From: a virus
IMG/VR virus record: IMGVR_UViG_2558860454_000004
Length of the DNA stretch: 64,000 nt
Strand: one strand, 5' to 3'
In this document: positions 25,958 through 38,869 of the stretch, in pieces
Layout of the letters: every line of letters begins with the position of its first letter
How positions within the stretch are numbered: position 1 is the stretch's first letter
Program-made: the position numbers and the translations under genes
Notes under the pieces: model-generated
Databases searched by the model: none
Seen by the model: only the letters and a program-made list of their open reading frames with translations
What the model was told of the DNA's origin: nothing

Positions 25958-26482
25958 ATGATCACTGTTAAAAGAGCTGAATATCTGTCTGCGCTGACAT
26001 GCGCTGGCGTGAAGGAGGTCCGCTATTACCTGAATGGCATTTTCTTTGACCCTGAAGGTTTTGTTGTGGGTACAAACGGGCATCGCCTGTTTTGCGGTAG
26101 GGCCATAACCGAAGGGGAAAGCGCTATTGTCAACGTGAAAGCAAAGCCTCCCACAAAATTTGAGCAGGTCCGTATAGATACGGTATTGAAAGCGGCCACT
26201 TTTCTCAATAACGAAGGTCAGACCGTCATGACATCGCCTGTCGAAGTTATCGACGGACATTTTCCAGACTGGCGACGGGTGGCTGACTTTAAACCCGGGA
26301 AAGTGGATGCCATTGGTATACATCTGCCCTATCTGGCAGACGCTGCGAAATGCTCAAAATATTTCGATAAAAAGGCCAACGCCATTATCGAAACACAAGG
26401 CGTATCTGACGCGATACGCCTTCAGTTAAGCGCTGACGCTTATATGCTCATTATGCCAGTCCGTATGCCGTCCCCCATCTGA
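25958..26482 (+). CDS. Compact beta-sliding-clamp (DnaN) homologue
   Basis: EVRYYLNGIFF, GTNGHRL, IDGHFPDWRRV, IMPVRM match DnaN DVRYYLNGMLF, ATDGHRL, VDGRFPDYRRV, VMPMRL. Confidence 0.8.
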   Translation: MITVKRAEYLSALTCAGVKEVRYYLNGIFFDPEGFVVGTNGHRLFCGRAITEGESAIVNVKAKPPTKFEQVRIDTVLKAATFLNNEGQTVMTSPVEVIDGHFPDWRRVADFKPGKVDAIGIHLPYLADAAKCSKYFDKKANAIIETQGVSDAIRLQLSADAYMLIMPVRMPSPI

Positions 26483-27646: not shown

Positions 27647-28165
27647 ATGCCGGAAGCCTGGAAAGATATTTCAGGCTTTGAAGGCATTTACCAGATTTCA
27701 GACGCTGGAAACCTGAGAAGCCTCGACAGAACTGTATTAAACAAAGGTTCTGGCTGCACCTATCCCGTTAAAGGTAAGCCACTAAAACCACGCTATGACG
27801 CAGACGGCTATCTAATCACCGACTTATGGAAAGCGGGTAATAAGGTAACCGTCAAAATCCACCGTCTCGTTGCCGCAGCATTTATCCCCGGGTCTGCCCC
27901 TGAAGTTGACCACATTAACGGTCGTCGCGATGACAACCGGGCGGTAAATCTTCGCTGGGTCTCTCTTTCACAAAACAGGGCTAACTCTCACACCAGAAAG
28001 AATAAATCTGGAGTGGTTGGCGTTCGGTTCAGCGAAGGTAAGAAAAACCCGTGGCAGGCCTACGGACGAGTGAATGGCAAATTCAAATCTCTCGGTCATT
28101 TCCCTACCAAGCAACTCGCAGCGGCTGCGCGGCGAAAACACATTCAGGAGGTCATGAATGCCTGA
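27647..28165 (+). CDS. NUMOD4-HNH homing endonuclease with AP2-like C-terminus
   Basis: [43 protein letters not shown]. Confidence 0.9.
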
Positions 28166-29459
28166 TGTTCATGCACGATTATCACCATCATCTGCGCACC
28201 GTTGGCTAAGGTGTGCGGGTAGCCTGGCGCTGGAAGCCACTCAGCCAGACAAAGAAACGTCCTTTGCTTTAGAAGGTACCGCAGCACATGCACTTGCCGA
28301 AAAGGTGCTGCGCAACCGCCAGAGCCACCCGGAATACTATGCGGGCTTCAATGTCGCTATGTTCCTCGGTTCTTACCCGCTCGCTGCACATCCTGATGAT
28401 ACTACCGGCCCACAGGTAGGTGAGGAAATGGTCGAAGCCGTTGGCCGTTACGTCGATACAGTCTGGGCACTGTCACAGGGCAATGAGTTGCTTGTCGAAC
28501 AACGTGTCGACTTTTCGCACATTGTCGGAGTGCCTGAGTCATTCGGTACCGCTGACGCCGTCATCATCGCGGGCAACGAGCTGCAGATCCACGACCTGAA
28601 ATACGGTAAGGGTGTGCGGGTCGATGCTGAGCAGAACGAGCAACTGCAGCTATATGCCCTGGGCGCACTTGAGCAATTCAGCATGCTGTACGACTTCGAA
28701 ACGATACGCCTGTTCATCCACCAGCCGCGGCTTAACCACGTTTCAGAGTGGGCCCTGACGGTGGAAGAGCTCCAGACGTTCGGCGAACGGGCGCAGGAGG
28801 CCGCCGCTCATGTGATCGTGATGTTCAACATCGCTGATTGCGAAAGCGTCGAAACACTGCCACTGGAGAATTTCACCCCGGGCGAAAAACAGTGTCGCTT
28901 CTGTAAGGCAAAAGCCGTCTGCACTGCTCAGAAAATGCAGCATATGCAAACAGCTGCCAGCGATTTCGAAGATCTGTCTAAACCTGTCAGCGAGATAATC
29001 GCCGATGCCAGCGCACGTGTCCCCCTGTTAACCGTCGAACAACTGGCGGAGATCTACAGCCAGGCCGACTTTATCGAATCGTGGCTAAAGGCAGTACGCG
29101 ACCGTGTAAACGCTGAGCTGAACGCCGGGCATCCGGTACCAGGCTTTAAGCTGGTTACTGGTAAACAGGGAAATCGTGCCTGGAGCGATGAAGAAGCCGC
29201 CCGCGCGCTGCTGAAAGACCAGTTCCGCTATAAAACCGAGGAAGTTTTCGACCTTAAACTAATTAGCCCGACCAAAGCCGAAAAGCTCATTAAAAAGGCC
29301 AGCCCCCGCCGCTGGACGAAAGTCGAAGCGCTGATCACCCGCGCTGACGGTAAGCCCACCGTCGCCCCCGAATCCGACCCGCGCCCAGCGCTCAATATCA
29401 ACCCTGTTAACGATTTCGACGACGTGCCCGACGACGCGTGCGCCGCAGACCTCATTTGA
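28158..29459 (+). CDS. DUF2800 Cas4-like PD-(D/E)XK nuclease
   Basis: [38 protein letters not shown]. Confidence 0.88.
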
Positions 29460-29473
29460 TTAAGGAAATACCC

Positions 29474-30022
29474 ATGAAAATTAAACTGAACAACGTCCGC
29501 CTGGCCTTCCCTGCTCTGTTCGAAGCAAAAACTGTGAATGGTGAAGGCGACCCGCGCTTCTCAGCTGTTTTCCTGATGGATCCAAAGCACCCTCAGCTGG
29601 ACGAAGTCCGCAAAGCGCTGAAGCAGGTAGCGAAGGAAAAATGGGGTGAGAAGTGGGAAACCATTTACAACCAGCTGGAGAAAAAGCTCAATCTCTGCCT
29701 GCATGACGGTGACGAGAAAGCTGAATACGAAGGCTTCCCGGGTAACTTCTTCCTGAACGCAGCCAACAAAGCGCGTCCGGCAGTTCTTGACCGTGACCGC
29801 TCCCCCCTTATTCAGGCTGACGGGCGACCTTATGCAGGCTGCTATGTCAACGCAGTTATCGACATCTGGGCGCAGGACAACAACTTCGGCAAACGTATCA
29901 ACGCTTCGCTGGGCGGTGTTCAGTTCCTGCGCGATGGCGACGCCTTCGCTGGCGGAGGTGTGGCAAGCACTGACGACTTCGACGACATCAGCGAAGGTGC
30001 CGATGCCGACGCGTTGATTTAA
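29474..30022 (+). CDS. ssDNA-binding protein (DUF2815)
   Basis: NVRLAFP, YAGCYVN, GVQFLRDG, acidic C-terminus. Confidence 0.88.
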   Translation: MKIKLNNVRLAFPALFEAKTVNGEGDPRFSAVFLMDPKHPQLDEVRKALKQVAKEKWGEKWETIYNQLEKKLNLCLHDGDEKAEYEGFPGNFFLNAANKARPAVLDRDRSPLIQADGRPYAGCYVNAVIDIWAQDNNFGKRINASLGGVQFLRDGDAFAGGGVASTDDFDDISEGADADALI

Positions 30023-30112
30023 CCCTCCTTCATAGCCGCCCGGTTACACGCCGGGCGAAATCCAAAAAGCTATTGGAATTTTTACGGCTATTTGTTTTTA
30101 TAAGGGTATTAC

Positions 30113-31615
30113 ATGTCAACTTTGAGAATCGGTATGGAAATCCAAGAGTTTGTAAGCCACTACAAAAACCACCCTGTTCTATTCATTGGGACAGGATTTA
30201 GCCTACGATACCTAGAAAACTCATTTAGCTGGGATGGTCTTCTTTTGAGTGTCGCTATGGAACTAACCGGTAATGCTGAATTCTACTACGATTTGAAAGC
30301 TGAAAGCCTGGAAGGTGACGAGTACCGATACGATATCTTAGCTACAAAACTTGAAAGTGTTTTTAACAAAAAGCTGGCAGAAGATCGGAACGGTAAGTTC
30401 AAAGATATCAATGATGTTTTCTATGAGCACATGAAAAGGGGCAAAAAACTAAGTCGATTCAAAATTTATTTAACCTCCATACTTAAAGACCTAAAAATAA
30501 AAGAGTCAATGATGGAGGAAATAAATAGCTTAATAAAAACAAGAAAAAACATAGGCTCTATCATTACAACAAACTACGACCAACTCGTAGAGAATATCTT
30601 TGATTTTAATCCATTGATTGGCAACAACATTCTTTTAAGCAACCCGTACGGTTCAGTTTACAAAATACATGGCTGCGTTAGTGACCCTAACAACATAATT
30701 ATCACAGGGGAAGACTACGCAAACTTTGACAATAAGTATGAGTTAATTCGTGCTCAACTACTCTCAATATTCATACATAACCCTATCATATTCATAGGGT
30801 ATAGCATTAGCGATAAAAACATTAAGTACTTATTAAAAACAATATTCTCATACGTTGACTTAAATACCGAACTTGCCAAAAGAATCAAAGATAATTTTCT
30901 TTTGGTTGAATACGAAAAAGACAGCATGTCTACTGAAATTACGGAGCATGACATAGATATAGAAGGCATGTCTATTATAAGAATAAATAAAATAAAAACA
31001 AATAATTACAAAGCCGTATATAATGCCATCTCGGGACTGGTTTTACCAGTATCCGCAATGGACATAAGAAAGGTTCAAAAAGTTTGGAGTACCATTAAAA
31101 GCGGTGGTGAGATAAAGGTTAAAATTACAGAAAATTTAGATGAACTTCGTAATGATGAAATGGTCATTGCTGTTGGTTCAGAAAGAACAGTACAATATGT
31201 TTATCAAACAAAATCTGAAATGATACAGAACTATTTTAAAATAGTTGACGAAGCAAATTCTCAACTTATCGCACTACTGAATAAGCAAACCATAGCTAAT
31301 AGCGAACACTTTCCAATATACGCTTTTAGTTCTATCTGCCCTGAATTAGAAAATACCGAGACATACAGAAAACGGCAACTAGATAAAATCATTGATAACA
31401 TTTCTCGAATTAAAGCATGTAAGAGTGAGGCTGTGTCTATTGATGAAATACTAAAAGAGACAAAAGAGTATAAAGTTGCTAACACGATTATGTATTGCGT
31501 ACTAAACGACACCATTTCATTAAAACAACTACGAGACTATTTAACCACACCAGGGCATAAAATTGATACTCAATATAGGCGACTTTTATGCTTATATGAT
31601 TATTTATCATATTAA
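30113..31615 (+). CDS. SIR2-family (SIR2_2) protein, candidate NADase defence effector
   Basis: FIGTGFS, ITTNYD, YKIHG, FIGYSISD motifs; markedly AT-rich insert. Confidence 0.88.
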   Translation: MSTLRIGMEIQEFVSHYKNHPVLFIGTGFSLRYLENSFSWDGLLLSVAMELTGNAEFYYDLKAESLEGDEYRYDILATKLESVFNKKLAEDRNGKFKDINDVFYEHMKRGKKLSRFKIYLTSILKDLKIKESMMEEINSLIKTRKNIGSIITTNYDQLVENIFDFNPLIGNNILLSNPYGSVYKIHGCVSDPNNIIITGEDYANFDNKYELIRAQLLSIFIHNPIIFIGYSISDKNIKYLLKTIFSYVDLNTELAKRIKDNFLLVEYEKDSMSTEITEHDIDIEGMSIIRINKIKTNNYKAVYNAISGLVLPVSAMDIRKVQKVWSTIKSGGEIKVKITENLDELRNDEMVIAVGSERTVQYVYQTKSEMIQNYFKIVDEANSQLIALLNKQTIANSEHFPIYAFSSICPELENTETYRKRQLDKIIDNISRIKACKSEAVSIDEILKETKEYKVANTIMYCVLNDTISLKQLRDYLTTPGHKIDTQYRRLLCLYDYLSY

Positions 31616-31636
31616 TCGCTCTTAACTTCGGTTATG

Positions 31637-31662
31637 AAAGCCGCCATTTTTGGCGGTTTTTT
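31637..31662 (+). terminator. Intrinsic terminator after Sir2 gene
   Basis: CCGCCA-TTTT-TGGCGG followed by TTTTTT. Confidence 0.75.
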
Positions 31663-31691
31663 ATTTATTAAATCCAAATGGTTCTTACTTG

Positions 31692-33752
31692 ATGCAAAAA
31701 CTTTGGTTAGACCTCGAAACTTTCAGCGAAATCCCAATAAAAAACGGCATCCATGTCTATGCCGAAGGTGTCGAGATCATGTTATTCGCATGGGCAATCG
31801 ACGAAGGCCCCGTCAACGTACACGATTTAACCGCCGACTATAACTTGCCGACACGACTACTGACTGCCCTCAGCGATGAGAGCGTACTAATATACGCACA
31901 CAACAGCCATTTCGACCGTACCGTTCTGCGCCACGCTCACCCTCGGCTGGCACCCGATGTTACCCGCTGGCGCGACACGATGGTGCAGGCGCTGGCGCAC
32001 GGACTCCCCGGCGCACTGGGAGGGCTCTGCGAAGTACTGGGCGTTCCGCAGGACAAGGCGAAGGATAAAGAGGGTAAAGCGCTGATCCAGCTTTTCTGTA
32101 AGCCACGTCCGAAGAACAGCAAACTGCACCGGGCCACCAGCAAAACGCACCCGGAGGAATGGCGGCGCTTTATTGCTTATGCTGGCCTTGATATCGAAGC
32201 CATGCGCGAAGTCTATAAACGGCTGCCGAAATGGAACTATCAGGGGACCGAGCTGGCGCTCTGGCATCGTGACCAGCAGATCAATGACCGCGGCGTCTGC
32301 ATGGATGTGCAGCTCGCGCAGGCAGCAATCGAAGCTGTAGACCTGGAACAAAAGCGCCTTGCGAAGCGCACGCAGGTGATGACCGACGGCGAAGTGCAGG
32401 CGGCGACGCAGCGCGATGCCATGCTCAAACACATTGTAGAATCCTACGGCGTGGAGCTGCCGGACATGCAGCGCAGCACGCTGGAACGCCGTATGGCGGA
32501 TCCTGATTTTCCGTCGGCGGTGAAAGAGCTGCTGGCTATCCGCCTGCAGGCCAGCACCACCAGCACCAGTAAGTACAAATCACTGATGAAGGGTGTGAGC
32601 AGTGACGGGCGTCTGCGTGGCACACTGCAGTTCTGCGGCGCATCGCGAACCGGGCGCTGGGCCGGGCGATTATTCCAGCCGCAGAACCTGCCCCGCCCTT
32701 CTCTTGAGCAGGAGCAGATAGACGAGGGCATCGAAGCGCTGAAAGCCGGATGCGCCGATCTGCTGTTCGATAACATCATGGAGCTGACCAGCTCGGCGCT
32801 GCGCGGCTGCATTATGGCGCCCGAAGGTAAAAAACTGGTGGTTAGCGACCTGTCGAACATCGAAGGGCGCAAGCTGGCCTGGCTTGCCGGTGAGCAGTGG
32901 AAACTGGACGCGTTCAGGGAGTACGACGAGGGGACCGGCCACGACCTCTATAAACTGGCCTACGCCCGCGCCTTCAACATCTCGCCGGATGATGTCGACA
33001 AATACCAGCGTCAGATCGGCAAGGTGATGGAGCTCGGCCTCGGCTTCGGCGGTGGCGTTGCGGCGTTCTTGACCTTCGCCCTGGTCTATGGCCTTGACCT
33101 CGACGAACTGGCGAACGCCGCGCTGCCGAACATCCCCCGCGATGTTATCCGCGAGGCGAAAAGCTGGTACGACGAATCGGTTAAACGCAAGTCGACCTAT
33201 GGCCTGTCAGAGCGTGTTTTCATCGCCTGTGACTCGCTTAAACGTCTCTGGCGCAGAGCGCACCCGGCAACCTGCGATTTCTGGTACGAGCTCGAGCGCA
33301 CCGTCCGCGCCGCAATAGCCACACCGCAAAAAACGCTGTACTGCGGTTATCTGAAAATCCGCCGCGATGGCGCATGGCTGCGCATACAGCTGCCATCTGG
33401 GCGAGCACTCTGCTACCCGTCCCCGTCCATCGAGAAGGGGAATATCACCTATCAGGGCATTAACTCCTACTCGCGCAAATGGCAGCGGCTCAAAACCTAC
33501 GGCGGAAAGCTGGTGGAAAACGTCACACAGGCGGCCGCCCGTGATGTTCTGGCCGGAAACATGCCGCTGATCGAGGACGCCGGTTACAGCATTGTGCTGA
33601 CGGTACACGACGAAGTTATTTGCGAAGCACCGGACACCGACGATTTTAACGATGAAGCGCTTTCTGCACTGCTCTCCACTAACCCCGAATGGGCGCCCGA
33701 TATCCCACTGAACGCTGGCGGCTTTGAGGCGTACCACTACCGTAAGGACTAA
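31692..33752 (+). CDS. Family A DNA polymerase with 3'-5' exonuclease
   Basis: DLET Exo[10 protein letters not shown] motif [15 protein letters not shown] motif B, VHDE motif C; start set at MQKLWLD. Confidence 0.93.
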
Positions 33753-34868: not shown

Positions 34869-35567
34869 CTAGCTCCTCTTGGATATAGTTGCGTTTAAAA
34901 AGCATACTTTTAGCTGCTGTGTTTCATTTGTACTTACGGGAATGAGTCTGCCCTCAACTCCATCCACACTCATATACTCTGCATTATTTTTTCTACAACT
35001 CCCTAAAACAAACTTGCCATTATAACTTTCAATAACGTATGCGTTGTATTTTTTTGAATAAAATAATGGCTCATCTGATATATACGCCCACGTCCACCCA
35101 AGCACCGAAGGAAGCAATGCTAAGGAGAGTAAAAGCAGACCCCCGTGAGTTTTATTTTTTATCTTATATTCATTTCTAATGAAGACAGATATAGACCTTA
35201 CAGCTATAGGACTAAAAAAGCCTAGTAGTAATGCCTGTGTAACCACACTTCTTTTAGCATGCTCATAAAGATAAGTACTTCCATACGCATATAGCGTCCA
35301 GTAGGAAAGCAAAGAGGCACAGGCGAAGATAAATAAACATGCCCGCAACGGGACATTTTCCTCTTCGGTATCGATATGCAACAAAGCAACTAAAGCGAAG
35401 AGAATACCTAATGCAATAACAGAAAATTTAACTATATCCCCTACCCCAATAGAAATAAAACTCACAGGGAAACCATAAAATGCACTGTACCCCCTATAAA
35501 AAGAGAACGTCATAAAATATAGAGTGGCTAACAGAACCGTTGTGATTGATAAATCTTTTACATTCAT
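34869..35567 (-). CDS. Antisense moron, multi-pass membrane protein
   Basis: 232 aa, about six hydrophobic segments, AT-rich, inserted between VRR-NUC and SNF2 genes. Confidence 0.8.
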   Translation of the reverse strand: MNVKDLSITTVLLATLYFMTFSFYRGYSAFYGFPVSFISIGVGDIVKFSVIALGILFALVALLHIDTEEENVPLRACLFIFACASLLSYWTLYAYGSTYLYEHAKRSVVTQALLLGFFSPIAVRSISVFIRNEYKIKNKTHGGLLLLSLALLPSVLGWTWAYISDEPLFYSKKYNAYVIESYNGKFVLGSCRKNNAEYMSVDGVEGRLIPVSTNETQQLKVCFLNATISKRS

Positions 35568-37188: not shown

Positions 37189-37656
37189 TTATTTTTTTAT
37201 CCGTTGAACTTTGTCAGATAATTTTTCAATTGCTTTCACGATGCTTTCACTTTCAAGGAGTAAAAAGTGTTTGCATGAAATAAGCTTTCGTTGCATTACG
37301 ATAAGTTCCTTTTCAGGAAGTTTTTCTACGGAATTTTTATCAATACAAAGTGTCTTTCGGTATTCATCCAACAGTTTTGAGGCCAAACCACCTAATGTTT
37401 CAGCCTCTTGCTTGAACTCTAAATCGATTTTAGAATTTTCCTTATAAAATTCCGAGTTTCCCGAAATTAAAGATTCAGCCCTTAGCTTTATGGTAAGTAA
37501 TCGGCTCTCTAATTCGTGATAAGTACTTAAGACTTCAAGTCTTAATAAGTTAATAGACCTGAACTCCGCCTTTTTGTTAGCTCGCCAAGCATTGAATAAA
37601 CTAAGCGCCGATACTAATAACGCAAATATAGAAATTGCAAAACTATATTTATTCAT
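37189..37656 (-). CDS. Integrase-coupled cargo protein (N-terminal TM plus coiled coil)
   Basis: ATG directly follows integrase TAA; AT-rich; ISIFALLVSALSLF helix. Confidence 0.75.
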   Translation of the reverse strand: MNKYSFAISIFALLVSALSLFNAWRANKKAEFRSINLLRLEVLSTYHELESRLLTIKLRAESLISGNSEFYKENSKIDLEFKQEAETLGGLASKLLDEYRKTLCIDKNSVEKLPEKELIVMQRKLISCKHFLLLESESIVKAIEKLSDKVQRIKK

Positions 37657-38829
37657 TTAAATCAACCTCAGTTGATCAATAAAATCCGCATACCATTGCA
37701 TCATTCCCCGACGCCCTTCCATATAGAGGGCATGGTTATAAACCCCGCGAATATTATTCTTGTCCACATGAGCGATTTGGAGTTCAACCCAGTCAGAGTT
37801 GAATCCTCTATCGTTCAGTATGGTGCTAAACGTATGCCGGAAGCCATGCCCTACAACCCTTCCCTTATACCCCAGCGTGTGGATCATCCTGTTTATTGTG
37901 TTCTCGCTCATGACCTTTGACGGGTCATTCCTGCCGGGGAACATATTCACGAATCGACCTGTAAGACCGTGCAACTCTTTCAGCAAGACAACAAGCTGAT
38001 CGGAGAGCGGTACCAGGTGCGGGCGATCCATCTTCATAAATTCGGCGGGTATCTCCCATAGCCGATTATCGAAATCTACCCATTCCCATTTTGAGTGCCG
38101 CAGTTCGTAGGTACGCAGCCCCGCCAGCATCATGATCTGCAAACCCAGCCGGGGAAGCGGACTCCCCTTGTAACCCTCAAGCGCCGCCAGAAAATCGGGT
38201 AGCTCTTCCGCTGTCAGGAACTGGAAGGATTCACCTTTATGGCCGGTCATTGCGCTATTCAGTTCGCTGACGGGGTTGTACTTCGCGCGCCCGGTCGCAA
38301 CAGCATAACTGAATACCTCGCCGCACCATCGGCGCGTTTTAGCTGCTTTCTCAGTTGCGCCGCGATTCTCAATTTTACGCAGCGCCGTCAGCATCTGGAC
38401 GGGCTCAATCTCAGCAACCGGTAACTTACCAACCGCCGGAAAAATATCCTTATTGAATGCTTCGAGAATGTCAGAGGCATAGCCAGGCGACCAGCGCGGC
38501 TTCTTAAACTCATGCCACTCGATGGCAATATCTTTAAAGGTAATAGAGTTTGCTGCGGCAGCTGCAACGTGGCTTTTGACCTTTACCGGATCCACACCAG
38601 CTGCAACATTTCGCCGGGCTTCATCTCGCTTTTCGCGAGCCGCGGCCAGTGAAACAGCCGGGTATACACCGAGCGCCAGCATCTTTTCTCTACCGGCGAA
38701 GGTATAGCGATATCGCCAGTATTTCGCTCCACTGGTTTTCACCAGCAGAATAAGCCCGTTACCGTCTGGCAGTTTGTAGTCTTTCTCGCCTGGCTTTGCC
38801 GTCTCGACCTGTCGCGCATTTAGTTTCAT
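37657..38829 (-). CDS. int: P4-family tyrosine integrase
   Basis: Arm-binding N-terminus (DGNGL.L.V...G.KYWRYRY), LRTYEL, HGFRHT, VYNHA; start set at MKLNARQV. Confidence 0.93.
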   Translation of the reverse strand: MKLNARQVETAKPGEKDYKLPDGNGLILLVKTSGAKYWRYRYTFAGREKMLALGVYPAVSLAAAREKRDEARRNVAAGVDPVKVKSHVAAAAANSITFKDIAIEWHEFKKPRWSPGYASDILEAFNKDIFPAVGKLPVAEIEPVQMLTALRKIENRGATEKAAKTRRWCGEVFSYAVATGRAKYNPVSELNSAMTGHKGESFQFLTAEELPDFLAALEGYKGSPLPRLGLQIMMLAGLRTYELRHSKWEWVDFDNRLWEIPAEFMKMDRPHLVPLSDQLVVLLKELHGLTGRFVNMFPGRNDPSKVMSENTINRMIHTLGYKGRVVGHGFRHTFSTILNDRGFNSDWVELQIAHVDKNNIRGVYNHALYMEGRRGMMQWYADFIDQLRLI

Positions 38830-38832
38830 AGG

Positions 38833-38869
38833 TACCCGCCTCAAACTCAGATACCCGTCTATGTACCCG
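38833..38869. repeat. Putative arm-type sites of left-prophage integrase
   Basis: Three direct TACCCG repeats (38833, 38852, 38864) upstream of int. Confidence 0.55.

Follow-up and report, generated by a model that had tools for sequence, protein, structure and literature searches.

Within a 64,000-nt stretch of viral DNA (IMG/VR record IMGVR_UViG_2558860454_000004; hereafter, the window), a SIR2-family gene lies between the genes for a single-stranded DNA-binding protein (SSB) and a DNA polymerase in the replication module of an E. coli prophage. We found this gene to be horizontally acquired prophage cargo, held in a swappable slot between the two replication genes. Its 500-aa product joins a SIR2 domain, of the immune type by sequence and fold and with its catalytic residues intact, to an all-helical C-terminal domain that our searches recovered from its own family only. 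We consider it probable (about 0.65) that the gene is a single-gene anti-phage cargo acting by NADase-driven abortive infection, in which the C-terminal domain would serve as sensor or regulator. The window gene is a sound defence lead and not a new system, being a well-documented instance of a family that has already been catalogued.

The SIR2 gene is exchangeable cargo in a prophage replication module

The module formed by the DUF2800, DUF2815 and PolA genes was present in 159 of 5426 complete E. coli genomes. In 5 of these 159 sibling prophages the slot between DUF2815 and PolA was occupied by the SIR2 gene, while ~97% had no SIR2 gene and carried unrelated genes in its place: in IAI1 (L001) a hypothetical gene of 209 aa on the other strand, an Nmad5 gene together with a hypothetical gene in one sibling, and antirepressor genes in others. 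No SIR2 homolog was found in G001, the nearest virus record.

In the window, the SIR2 gene (P0001) is an intact open reading frame (ORF) of 500 aa on the + strand (30113-31615), with an alternative, family-typical start at the ATG at 30134 (M8); most homologs align from residue 8. GC content along the gene is 0.31-0.36 (~0.32), as compared with 0.55-0.58 in the upstream genes and 0.59-0.62 in the downstream gene. An AT-rich ORF of this length splitting the DUF2800-DUF2815-PolA run had been described in the first-pass annotation of the stretch, and the ORF, its GC contrast with the flanks (0.31-0.36 vs 0.55-0.62) and the Pfam assignments of the flanking genes bear this out. The same annotation had seen no HerA, TIR, Argonaute or STAND partner adjacent to the gene, and indeed none was found by Pfam or PADLOC among the neighboring ORFs within ~5 kb.

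The edges of the cassette were placed by alignment with siblings carrying other cargo, in which similarity to the window stops just past a hairpin that follows the SSB gene and picks up again at the PolA ATG at 31692. This hairpin belongs to the phage backbone rather than to the cassette, given that it is conserved in IAI1 and has an analogue in the Nmad5 phage; its stem is not followed by a T run, and it was not called by the terminator scan. The intrinsic terminator downstream of the SIR2 gene does belong to the cassette, since similarity resumes only at the PolA ATG, and in the junction alignment it was found only in the window and in the SIR2-bearing sibling L003. Thus, of the flanking hairpin and the dedicated terminator with which the gene had initially been credited, both exist and the terminator alone is its own. 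The 9-mer AAATCCAAA occurs exactly twice in the window, once at each cassette edge, and sibling L003 has 8 of its 9 bases at the right edge. This repeat may be the trace of an insertion (a target duplication), or else microhomology for cassette exchange.

The DNA of the SIR2 gene is 94.6-94.7% identical to that of the closest complete-genome siblings. Over the whole 5.6-kb stretch identity is 85.7%, which, with the cassette at 94.6%, puts the flanks at ~82%, the same level as in siblings without the SIR2 gene. The cassette is therefore closer than its flanks, indicating that it was exchanged among diverged backbones more recently than these backbones split.

The features of the locus are as follows (pLDDT, predicted local distance difference test):

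28158-29459, + strand: DUF2800/PD-(D/E)XK gene, upstream of the DUF2815 gene (Pfam)
29438-30022, + strand: left flank, gene for an Enc34-type SSB (DUF2815; Pfam PF10991, E = 4.2e-44; GC ~0.55), phage backbone
30037-30057, + strand: backbone hairpin directly 3' of the SSB stop codon, with a 7-bp perfect GC-rich stem (30037-30043 with 30051-30057) and a 7-nt loop
30058-30066, + strand: left copy of the 9-bp direct repeat AAATCCAAA, at the left cassette edge
30113-31615, + strand: SIR2-family gene, 500 aa (ORF and translation; PDC-S25 and phrog_2695 profile matches)
30134-31042, + strand: SIR2 (ThsA-type) domain, residues 8-310 (Pfam SIR2_2; Foldseek; pLDDT >90)
30572-30574 and 30668-30670, + strand: codons of N154 and H186, respectively
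31043-31207, + strand: linker, residues 311-365 (helix predicted at 315-329, the remainder a low-confidence model)
31208-31612, + strand: family-private, all-helical C-terminal domain, residues 366-500 (AlphaFold2 model)
31636-31661, + strand: intrinsic terminator of the cassette, an 11-pair stem followed by a T run (terminator scan)
31670-31678, + strand: right copy of the 9-bp direct repeat AAATCCAAA
31692-33752, + strand: right flank, gene for a family A DNA polymerase (PolA; Pfam DNA_pol_A; frame checked), likely start ATG 31692, phage backbone

Further neighbors (Pfam, PHROG) are a CI/LexA-like repressor, an HNH/NUMOD4 homing endonuclease, an SNF2-type helicase, an AlpA-like regulator and an integrase, on the basis of which we assign the locus to the early/replication operon of the prophage.

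A separate observation concerns the slot just past PolA. In IAI1, a 253-aa TIR-domain protein is encoded directly 3' of PolA (6223-6984 of L001); it matches the PADLOC candidate PDC-S35 (E = 7e-109) and Pfam CAP12-PCTIR_TIR. With PDC-S35 in this position, the replication module of the prophage family offers at least two cargo slots in which defence candidates are found.

The SIR2 domain is of the immune type

The four Sir2 motifs reported at first pass, GTGFS (residues 26-30), TTNYD (152-156), KIHG (184-187) and GYS (229-231), are all intact, and Pfam SIR2_2 (PF13289) covers residues 149-246 (E = 3.6e-22). A HMMER alignment with Bacillus cereus ThsA (6lhx) pairs N154 and H186 with N112 and H152, which, following the Thoeris literature, we take to be the catalytic residues of that enzyme. 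Among solved structures, the only sequence matches were to the SIR2 domains of ThsA, KomC and FAM118B. Conservation was examined across 54 aligned full-length homologs (23-86% identity), among which G26, G28, R32, W40, T153, N154, D156, K184, H186, G187, Y202, G229, Y230 and D234 are invariant; D496, near the C-terminus, is invariant as well, with P401 and Y495 nearly so.

An AlphaFold2 model built from the same alignment (mean pLDDT 86.9) comprises a SIR2 domain up to residue ~310, a poorly modelled segment at ~330-365 and an all-helical domain at ~366-500. When the whole model was searched with Foldseek, it matched ThsA, DSR2, KomC and SIR2/HerA in the PDB (E = 1e-10 to 1e-7) and ThsA, DSR2 and FAM118A/B in Swiss-Prot, in all cases over the SIR2 part only. 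The five cysteines of the protein (188, 408, 435, 461 and 492) form no CxxC pair, and the zinc ribbon of deacetylase sirtuins, with the two such pairs that mark the canonical sirtuin deacylases, is therefore absent. By sequence and fold, then, the SIR2 domain is immune-type (ThsA clade) with its catalytic residues in place, from which we infer NADase activity.

The C-terminal domain is private to the family

The C-terminal part, in which no motif had been recognized from the letters alone, stayed without one in wider searches. Across the 54 members it had no consistent Pfam match, and comparison with 48,161 PDB chains (VIA-align) gave a best Z-score of 4.1, which is helical noise. Outside its own family nothing was found in the AFDB clusters (same-family fragments only), and in the ESM Atlas a shape search returned the own family only while a feature search excluding SIR2_2 returned nothing. 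The domain is nonetheless modelled with a pLDDT of ~93 over residues 370-500 by AlphaFold2, and of 83 when folded alone. The linker that precedes it has a pLDDT of 45-69 over residues 320-360, is 82% identical in the close group, and keeps G355 in 47 of the 54 sequences.

Identity to close relatives is 57% in the C-terminal domain as compared with 75% in the SIR2 domain, and in the next tier of relatives 31% as compared with 52%. Such faster evolution of the C-terminal sequence is compatible with a role in recognition, though not proof of it. We also considered, and rejected, an exchange of C-terminal modules between family members: the region is homologous in 115 of 117 diverse representatives, and a swap was seen only in a relative from the P4 hotspot. 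We likewise dropped the hypothesis that other effectors use the same sensor module, as the searches of Pfam and the PDB gave no consistent or meaningful match and those of AFDB and the ESM Atlas recovered the own family only. Nucleic-acid binding found no support in charge, the domain being neutral (pI 6.65).

A tentative proposal, which we rate as possible but short of probable, is that the C-terminal helical domain together with the linker might form a new direct phage sensor, switching on a ThsA-clade SIR2 domain with neither a second messenger nor a partner protein. If so, PDC-S25 would parallel DSR2 in a compact form of 500 aa, with a recognition module unrelated to that of DSR2.

The gene belongs to a widespread family of defence candidates

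The PADLOC model of PDC-S25 (PDLC04968) matched residues 4-500 of the protein (E = 1.7e-158, 527 bits), and phrog_2695, a PHROG family of unknown function, matched residues 8-500 (E = 3.9e-155). PDC-S25 is represented in PADLOC by the models PDLC04968 and PDLC04967; its PHROG equivalent is phrog_2695, and its NCBI name is 'SIR2 family protein'. NCBIfam has no family for the protein, for which the Dsr1 model scored 10.5 bits against a cut-off of 1400, and the PADLOC ThsA models matched the SIR2 part only (ThsA1, residues 129-305). Judged by these profile matches, the protein is a full member of PDC-S25/phrog_2695, a family catalogued as a candidate and not characterized. The PDC set was derived by guilt-by-embedding in BREX, DISARM and type I restriction-modification (RM) loci, which yielded 145 candidates (bioRxiv 10.1101/2024.01.29.577857); the experiments of that study covered only separate Hma-embedded candidates, and not the PDCs (bioRxiv 10.1101/2024.01.29.577857). 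The only mention of PDC-S25 by name that we found in the literature is a PADLOC listing for an O157 strain.

This membership changes part of what the first-pass annotation had concluded. The gene had been put forward as a candidate defence system and as the best candidate for an undescribed one in the window, with the proviso that a match over its full length to an already characterized system would remove its novelty. The defence reading is strengthened by the contexts of relatives described below; the claim of an undescribed system does not stand, the gene being a full-length member of a published candidate family (PDC-S25/phrog_2695; bioRxiv 10.1101/2024.01.29.577857). A full-length match was thus found, to a family that is catalogued but not characterized, so that the proviso applies only by half.

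The family is large and of uniform size: of the candidates scored, more than 1700 proteins matched at E <= 0.001, and a 50%-clustered library contained 2616 matching representatives, nearly all ~490-560 aa long. A protein 98% identical to that of the window heads a cluster of 180 members. Close homologs (42-60% identity) occur in more than eight phyla, among them Pseudomonadota, Bacillota, Bacteroidota, Thermotogota, Campylobacterota, Deferribacterota and Mycoplasmatota.

At all 26 close loci that we compared, the GC content of the SIR2 gene was below that of its flanks (e.g., 0.32 vs 0.62), and no neighbor family was common to the 26. HsdM/HsdS-like genes were found near the SIR2 gene in 5-6 of these loci. 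In three of them (L017, L018 and L023) it lies between or beside hsdM, hsdS and hsdR, as confirmed by Pfam; in L012, L026 and L029 the HsdM/HsdS-like neighbors were identified by clustering only. The presence of relatives inside type I RM loci reproduces the embedding criterion by which the PDC set was defined.

Full-length homologs in E. coli occupy further mobile or defence-associated positions: one in the P2 gpQ|gpA hotspot (WP_021514374), one adjoining restriction genes, with yecA on one side and a type I RM locus on the other, one in an integrative mobilisable element, and one beside integrase and gop-beta-cII-like genes. The P2-hotspot homolog has been listed as a single-gene SIR2_2 arrangement, without a reported test (Table S5A of Rousset et al. 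2022, PMC9122126). More distant full-length relatives (27-31% identity) sit at moron positions in the Firmicute temperate phages BK5-T, phBC6A51 and Javan227, where they are found, respectively, between the lysin and integrase genes (ORF30, with its own annotated promoter and terminators), 3' of the amidase gene, and between the integrase and repressor genes. Together, the P2 hotspot, the embedding in type I RM loci and the defence islands favor a role in defence.

Comparison with known SIR2 systems

As compared with the rest of PDC-S25/phrog_2695, which it matches over its full length and with which it shares the single-gene arrangement (relatives being embedded in type I RM operons), the window protein shows no structural difference; what is particular to the window is the cargo slot inside a prophage replication module. 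The closest SIR2 domain outside the family, by both sequence and fold, is that of B. cereus ThsA (PDB 6lhx, 8bto), with the Asn and His aligned. ThsA also has its SIR2 domain at the N-terminus and a similar overall length (~480-500 aa). The window protein differs from it in having no SLOG domain, its C-terminal part being an unrelated helical module, and in having no ThsB/TIR gene adjacent; activation by glycocyclic ADP-ribose (gcADPR) is therefore not expected.

DSR2 and DSR1 share with the window protein the single gene, the N-terminal SIR2 NADase and a helical C-terminal region, and were matched by Foldseek over the SIR2 part. In DSR2, the helical C-terminal region itself binds the phage tail tube protein, and DSR2 is the best model for how the window protein may work. 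The differences are in size (500 aa vs ~1000-1260 aa), the DSR proteins having middle and alpha-solenoid C-terminal domains, and in the C-terminal domain, which is not detectably homologous; DSR1 is further set apart by the Dsr1 score given above. Unlike in SIR2-HerA (Nezha) and SPARSA (SIR2-APAZ/pAgo), no HerA or short Argonaute partner lies within ~5 kb of the window gene.

The SIR2 protein of the P4 hotspot (WP_001133507, pFR88) is similar in its SIR2 half (32% identity over residues 20-308), matches the PDC-S25 model at profile positions 10-358, and is likewise a single gene in a mobile-element hotspot. It differs in its length of 452 aa and in its C-terminal region, which is unrelated (hhalign probability 1%). 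In E. coli E47 (604-5359 of L088) this 452-aa protein is encoded in the hotspot of a P4-like satellite, adjoining an integrase-domain gene; just past the latter, near a second site-specific integrase gene, is an anti-phage dCTP deaminase gene.

A precedent that one Sir2 protein can suffice is the CRISPR-supervised sole-Sir2 (CRISIS), a single protein that converts NAD+ to ADP-ribose (ADPR) in vitro (bioRxiv 10.1101/2024.12.27.630466), and a homolog of which protects E. coli against T2 and T4 (bioRxiv 10.1101/2024.12.27.630466). The comparison is one of architecture and not of sequence, and the order of domains in sole-Sir2 is reversed: in its ~440 aa, the Sir2 domain is C-terminal and follows an unknown N-terminal part.

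A proposed mechanism and the evidence against it

In the mechanism that we propose, the SIR2 protein would be inactive in the lysogen until another phage infects, held off by its helical C-terminal domain, possibly with a contribution from the conserved linker. A phage-derived trigger would then release the enzyme, probably through a change in oligomeric state of the kind known for ThsA, DSR2 and FAM118B. The ThsA-type SIR2 domain, through N154 and H186, would hydrolyze NAD+ upon infection, and the loss of NAD+ would arrest or kill the cell before the invader completes its cycle. Activation by oligomeric state is drawn by analogy from the structures of ThsA, DSR2, KomC and FAM118B, which include helical assemblies, tetramers and filaments.

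Several observations weigh against this mechanism. One concerns expression: a promoter scan upstream of the SIR2 gene found no sigma-70-like site, and the lack of a good sigma-70 promoter there leaves it unproven that the lysogen expresses the gene. Sharing the orientation of the early operon, the gene could belong to the lytic phase. None of the pure-culture RNA runs contains the SIR2 locus. Four wastewater metatranscriptome runs yielded contigs, ~92% identical, spanning the 3' portion of the SSB gene and the SIR2 gene. The contigs stop at positions from 31632 to 31748, and in three of the runs they stop within or at the terminator (31632-31650); being RNA-library contigs, they cannot show transcription, and carried-over DNA is a possible source. 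No other effector shares the C-terminal fold, so that the comparative support available for STAND or TPR sensors is missing here. We found no experimental test of any PDC-S25 member in the literature, and the P4-hotspot protein, which was cloned as pFR88, is absent from the validated systems (Rousset et al. 2022, PMC9122126). The latter is weak negative evidence, and for a sister family only.

Alternative functions

The protein might instead be a signal-activated effector resembling ThsA, inert when its gene is alone, whose C-terminal domain binds a second messenger made by a sensor encoded elsewhere. Its SIR2 domain does fall in the ThsA clade, and a sibling prophage has the TIR candidate PDC-S35 in the slot after PolA. 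We regard such signaling as unlikely, however, in view of a C-terminal domain with no SLOG, Macro, SAVED or CARF signature (Pfam, fold search), of the lack of any TIR or cyclase gene conserved near the 26 homologs or present within ~5 kb here, and of the spread of the family as a one-gene cassette over more than eight phyla. Nor does it seem likely that the gene serves the replication of the resident phage, whether by modifying proteins in an NAD-dependent manner (as ADP-ribosyltransferase or deacylase) or by modulating NAD metabolism. Its position in the replication module, on the early-operon strand between the SSB and polymerase genes, and the failure to find a strong promoter of its own would suit that function, but ~97% of sibling prophages do without the gene, the family also occurs in type I RM operons and chromosomal islands that are not part of a phage, Firmicute phages carry it in the lysogeny/moron region rather than in the replication module, and the zinc ribbon of deacetylase sirtuins is absent.

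Related genes in the P2 and P4 hotspots, which are sites of competition between phage and satellite, and the presence of the family on mobile elements of many kinds would also be consistent with a weapon or counter-measure directed at satellites, plasmids or host immune signaling, e.g., by hydrolysis of ADPR-derived messengers. To our knowledge, no SIR2 enzyme degrades immune messengers. The embedding of relatives in type I RM loci points instead to host-side defence (bioRxiv 10.1101/2024.01.29.577857), making a counter-measure decidedly improbable. That the gene is merely carried along, silent or in decay and without a present function, is hardly credible: AT-rich foreign DNA may be silenced, and no promoter was found, but the 500-codon frame is intact with all invariant family residues kept, the 98%-identical protein heads a cluster of 180 sequences, and the cassette is better conserved than its flanks. 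We accordingly favor a single-gene anti-phage function over these alternatives.

Other genes near the locus

The HNH/NUMOD4 homing endonuclease gene (27647-28165, +) lies between a 349-aa ORF and the DUF2800 gene, and nothing is encoded at this site in the siblings L001 to L003. Upstream, the ORF at 25958-26482 (+; 174 aa) matches phrog_3007, a RusA-like Holliday junction resolvase, over its full length (E = 3.9e-53); another early annotation of the DNA had read it as a compact beta-clamp homologue, and it has no Pfam or PADLOC match. Antisense to the early operon, between the small ORFs 3' of PolA (through ~34854) and the SNF2 helicase gene, is an ORF at 34869-35567 (-; 232 aa, GC ~0.38) that has no Pfam, PHROG or PADLOC match and is a second piece of cargo. 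Another moron candidate, at 37189-37656 (-; 155 aa, low GC), adjoins the integrase gene (37657-38844); it matches phrog_32015, of unknown function (E = 4.6e-103), and has no Pfam or PADLOC match.

Implications

If the gene proves protective, PDC-S25 would add to the single-protein systems that deplete NAD+, as a small and widespread one that is often carried by phages. Its sensor module, of no known fold, would make it a convenient model for how SIR2 effectors are switched, and the replication module of this E. coli prophage family would be shown to have cargo slots for defence candidates.

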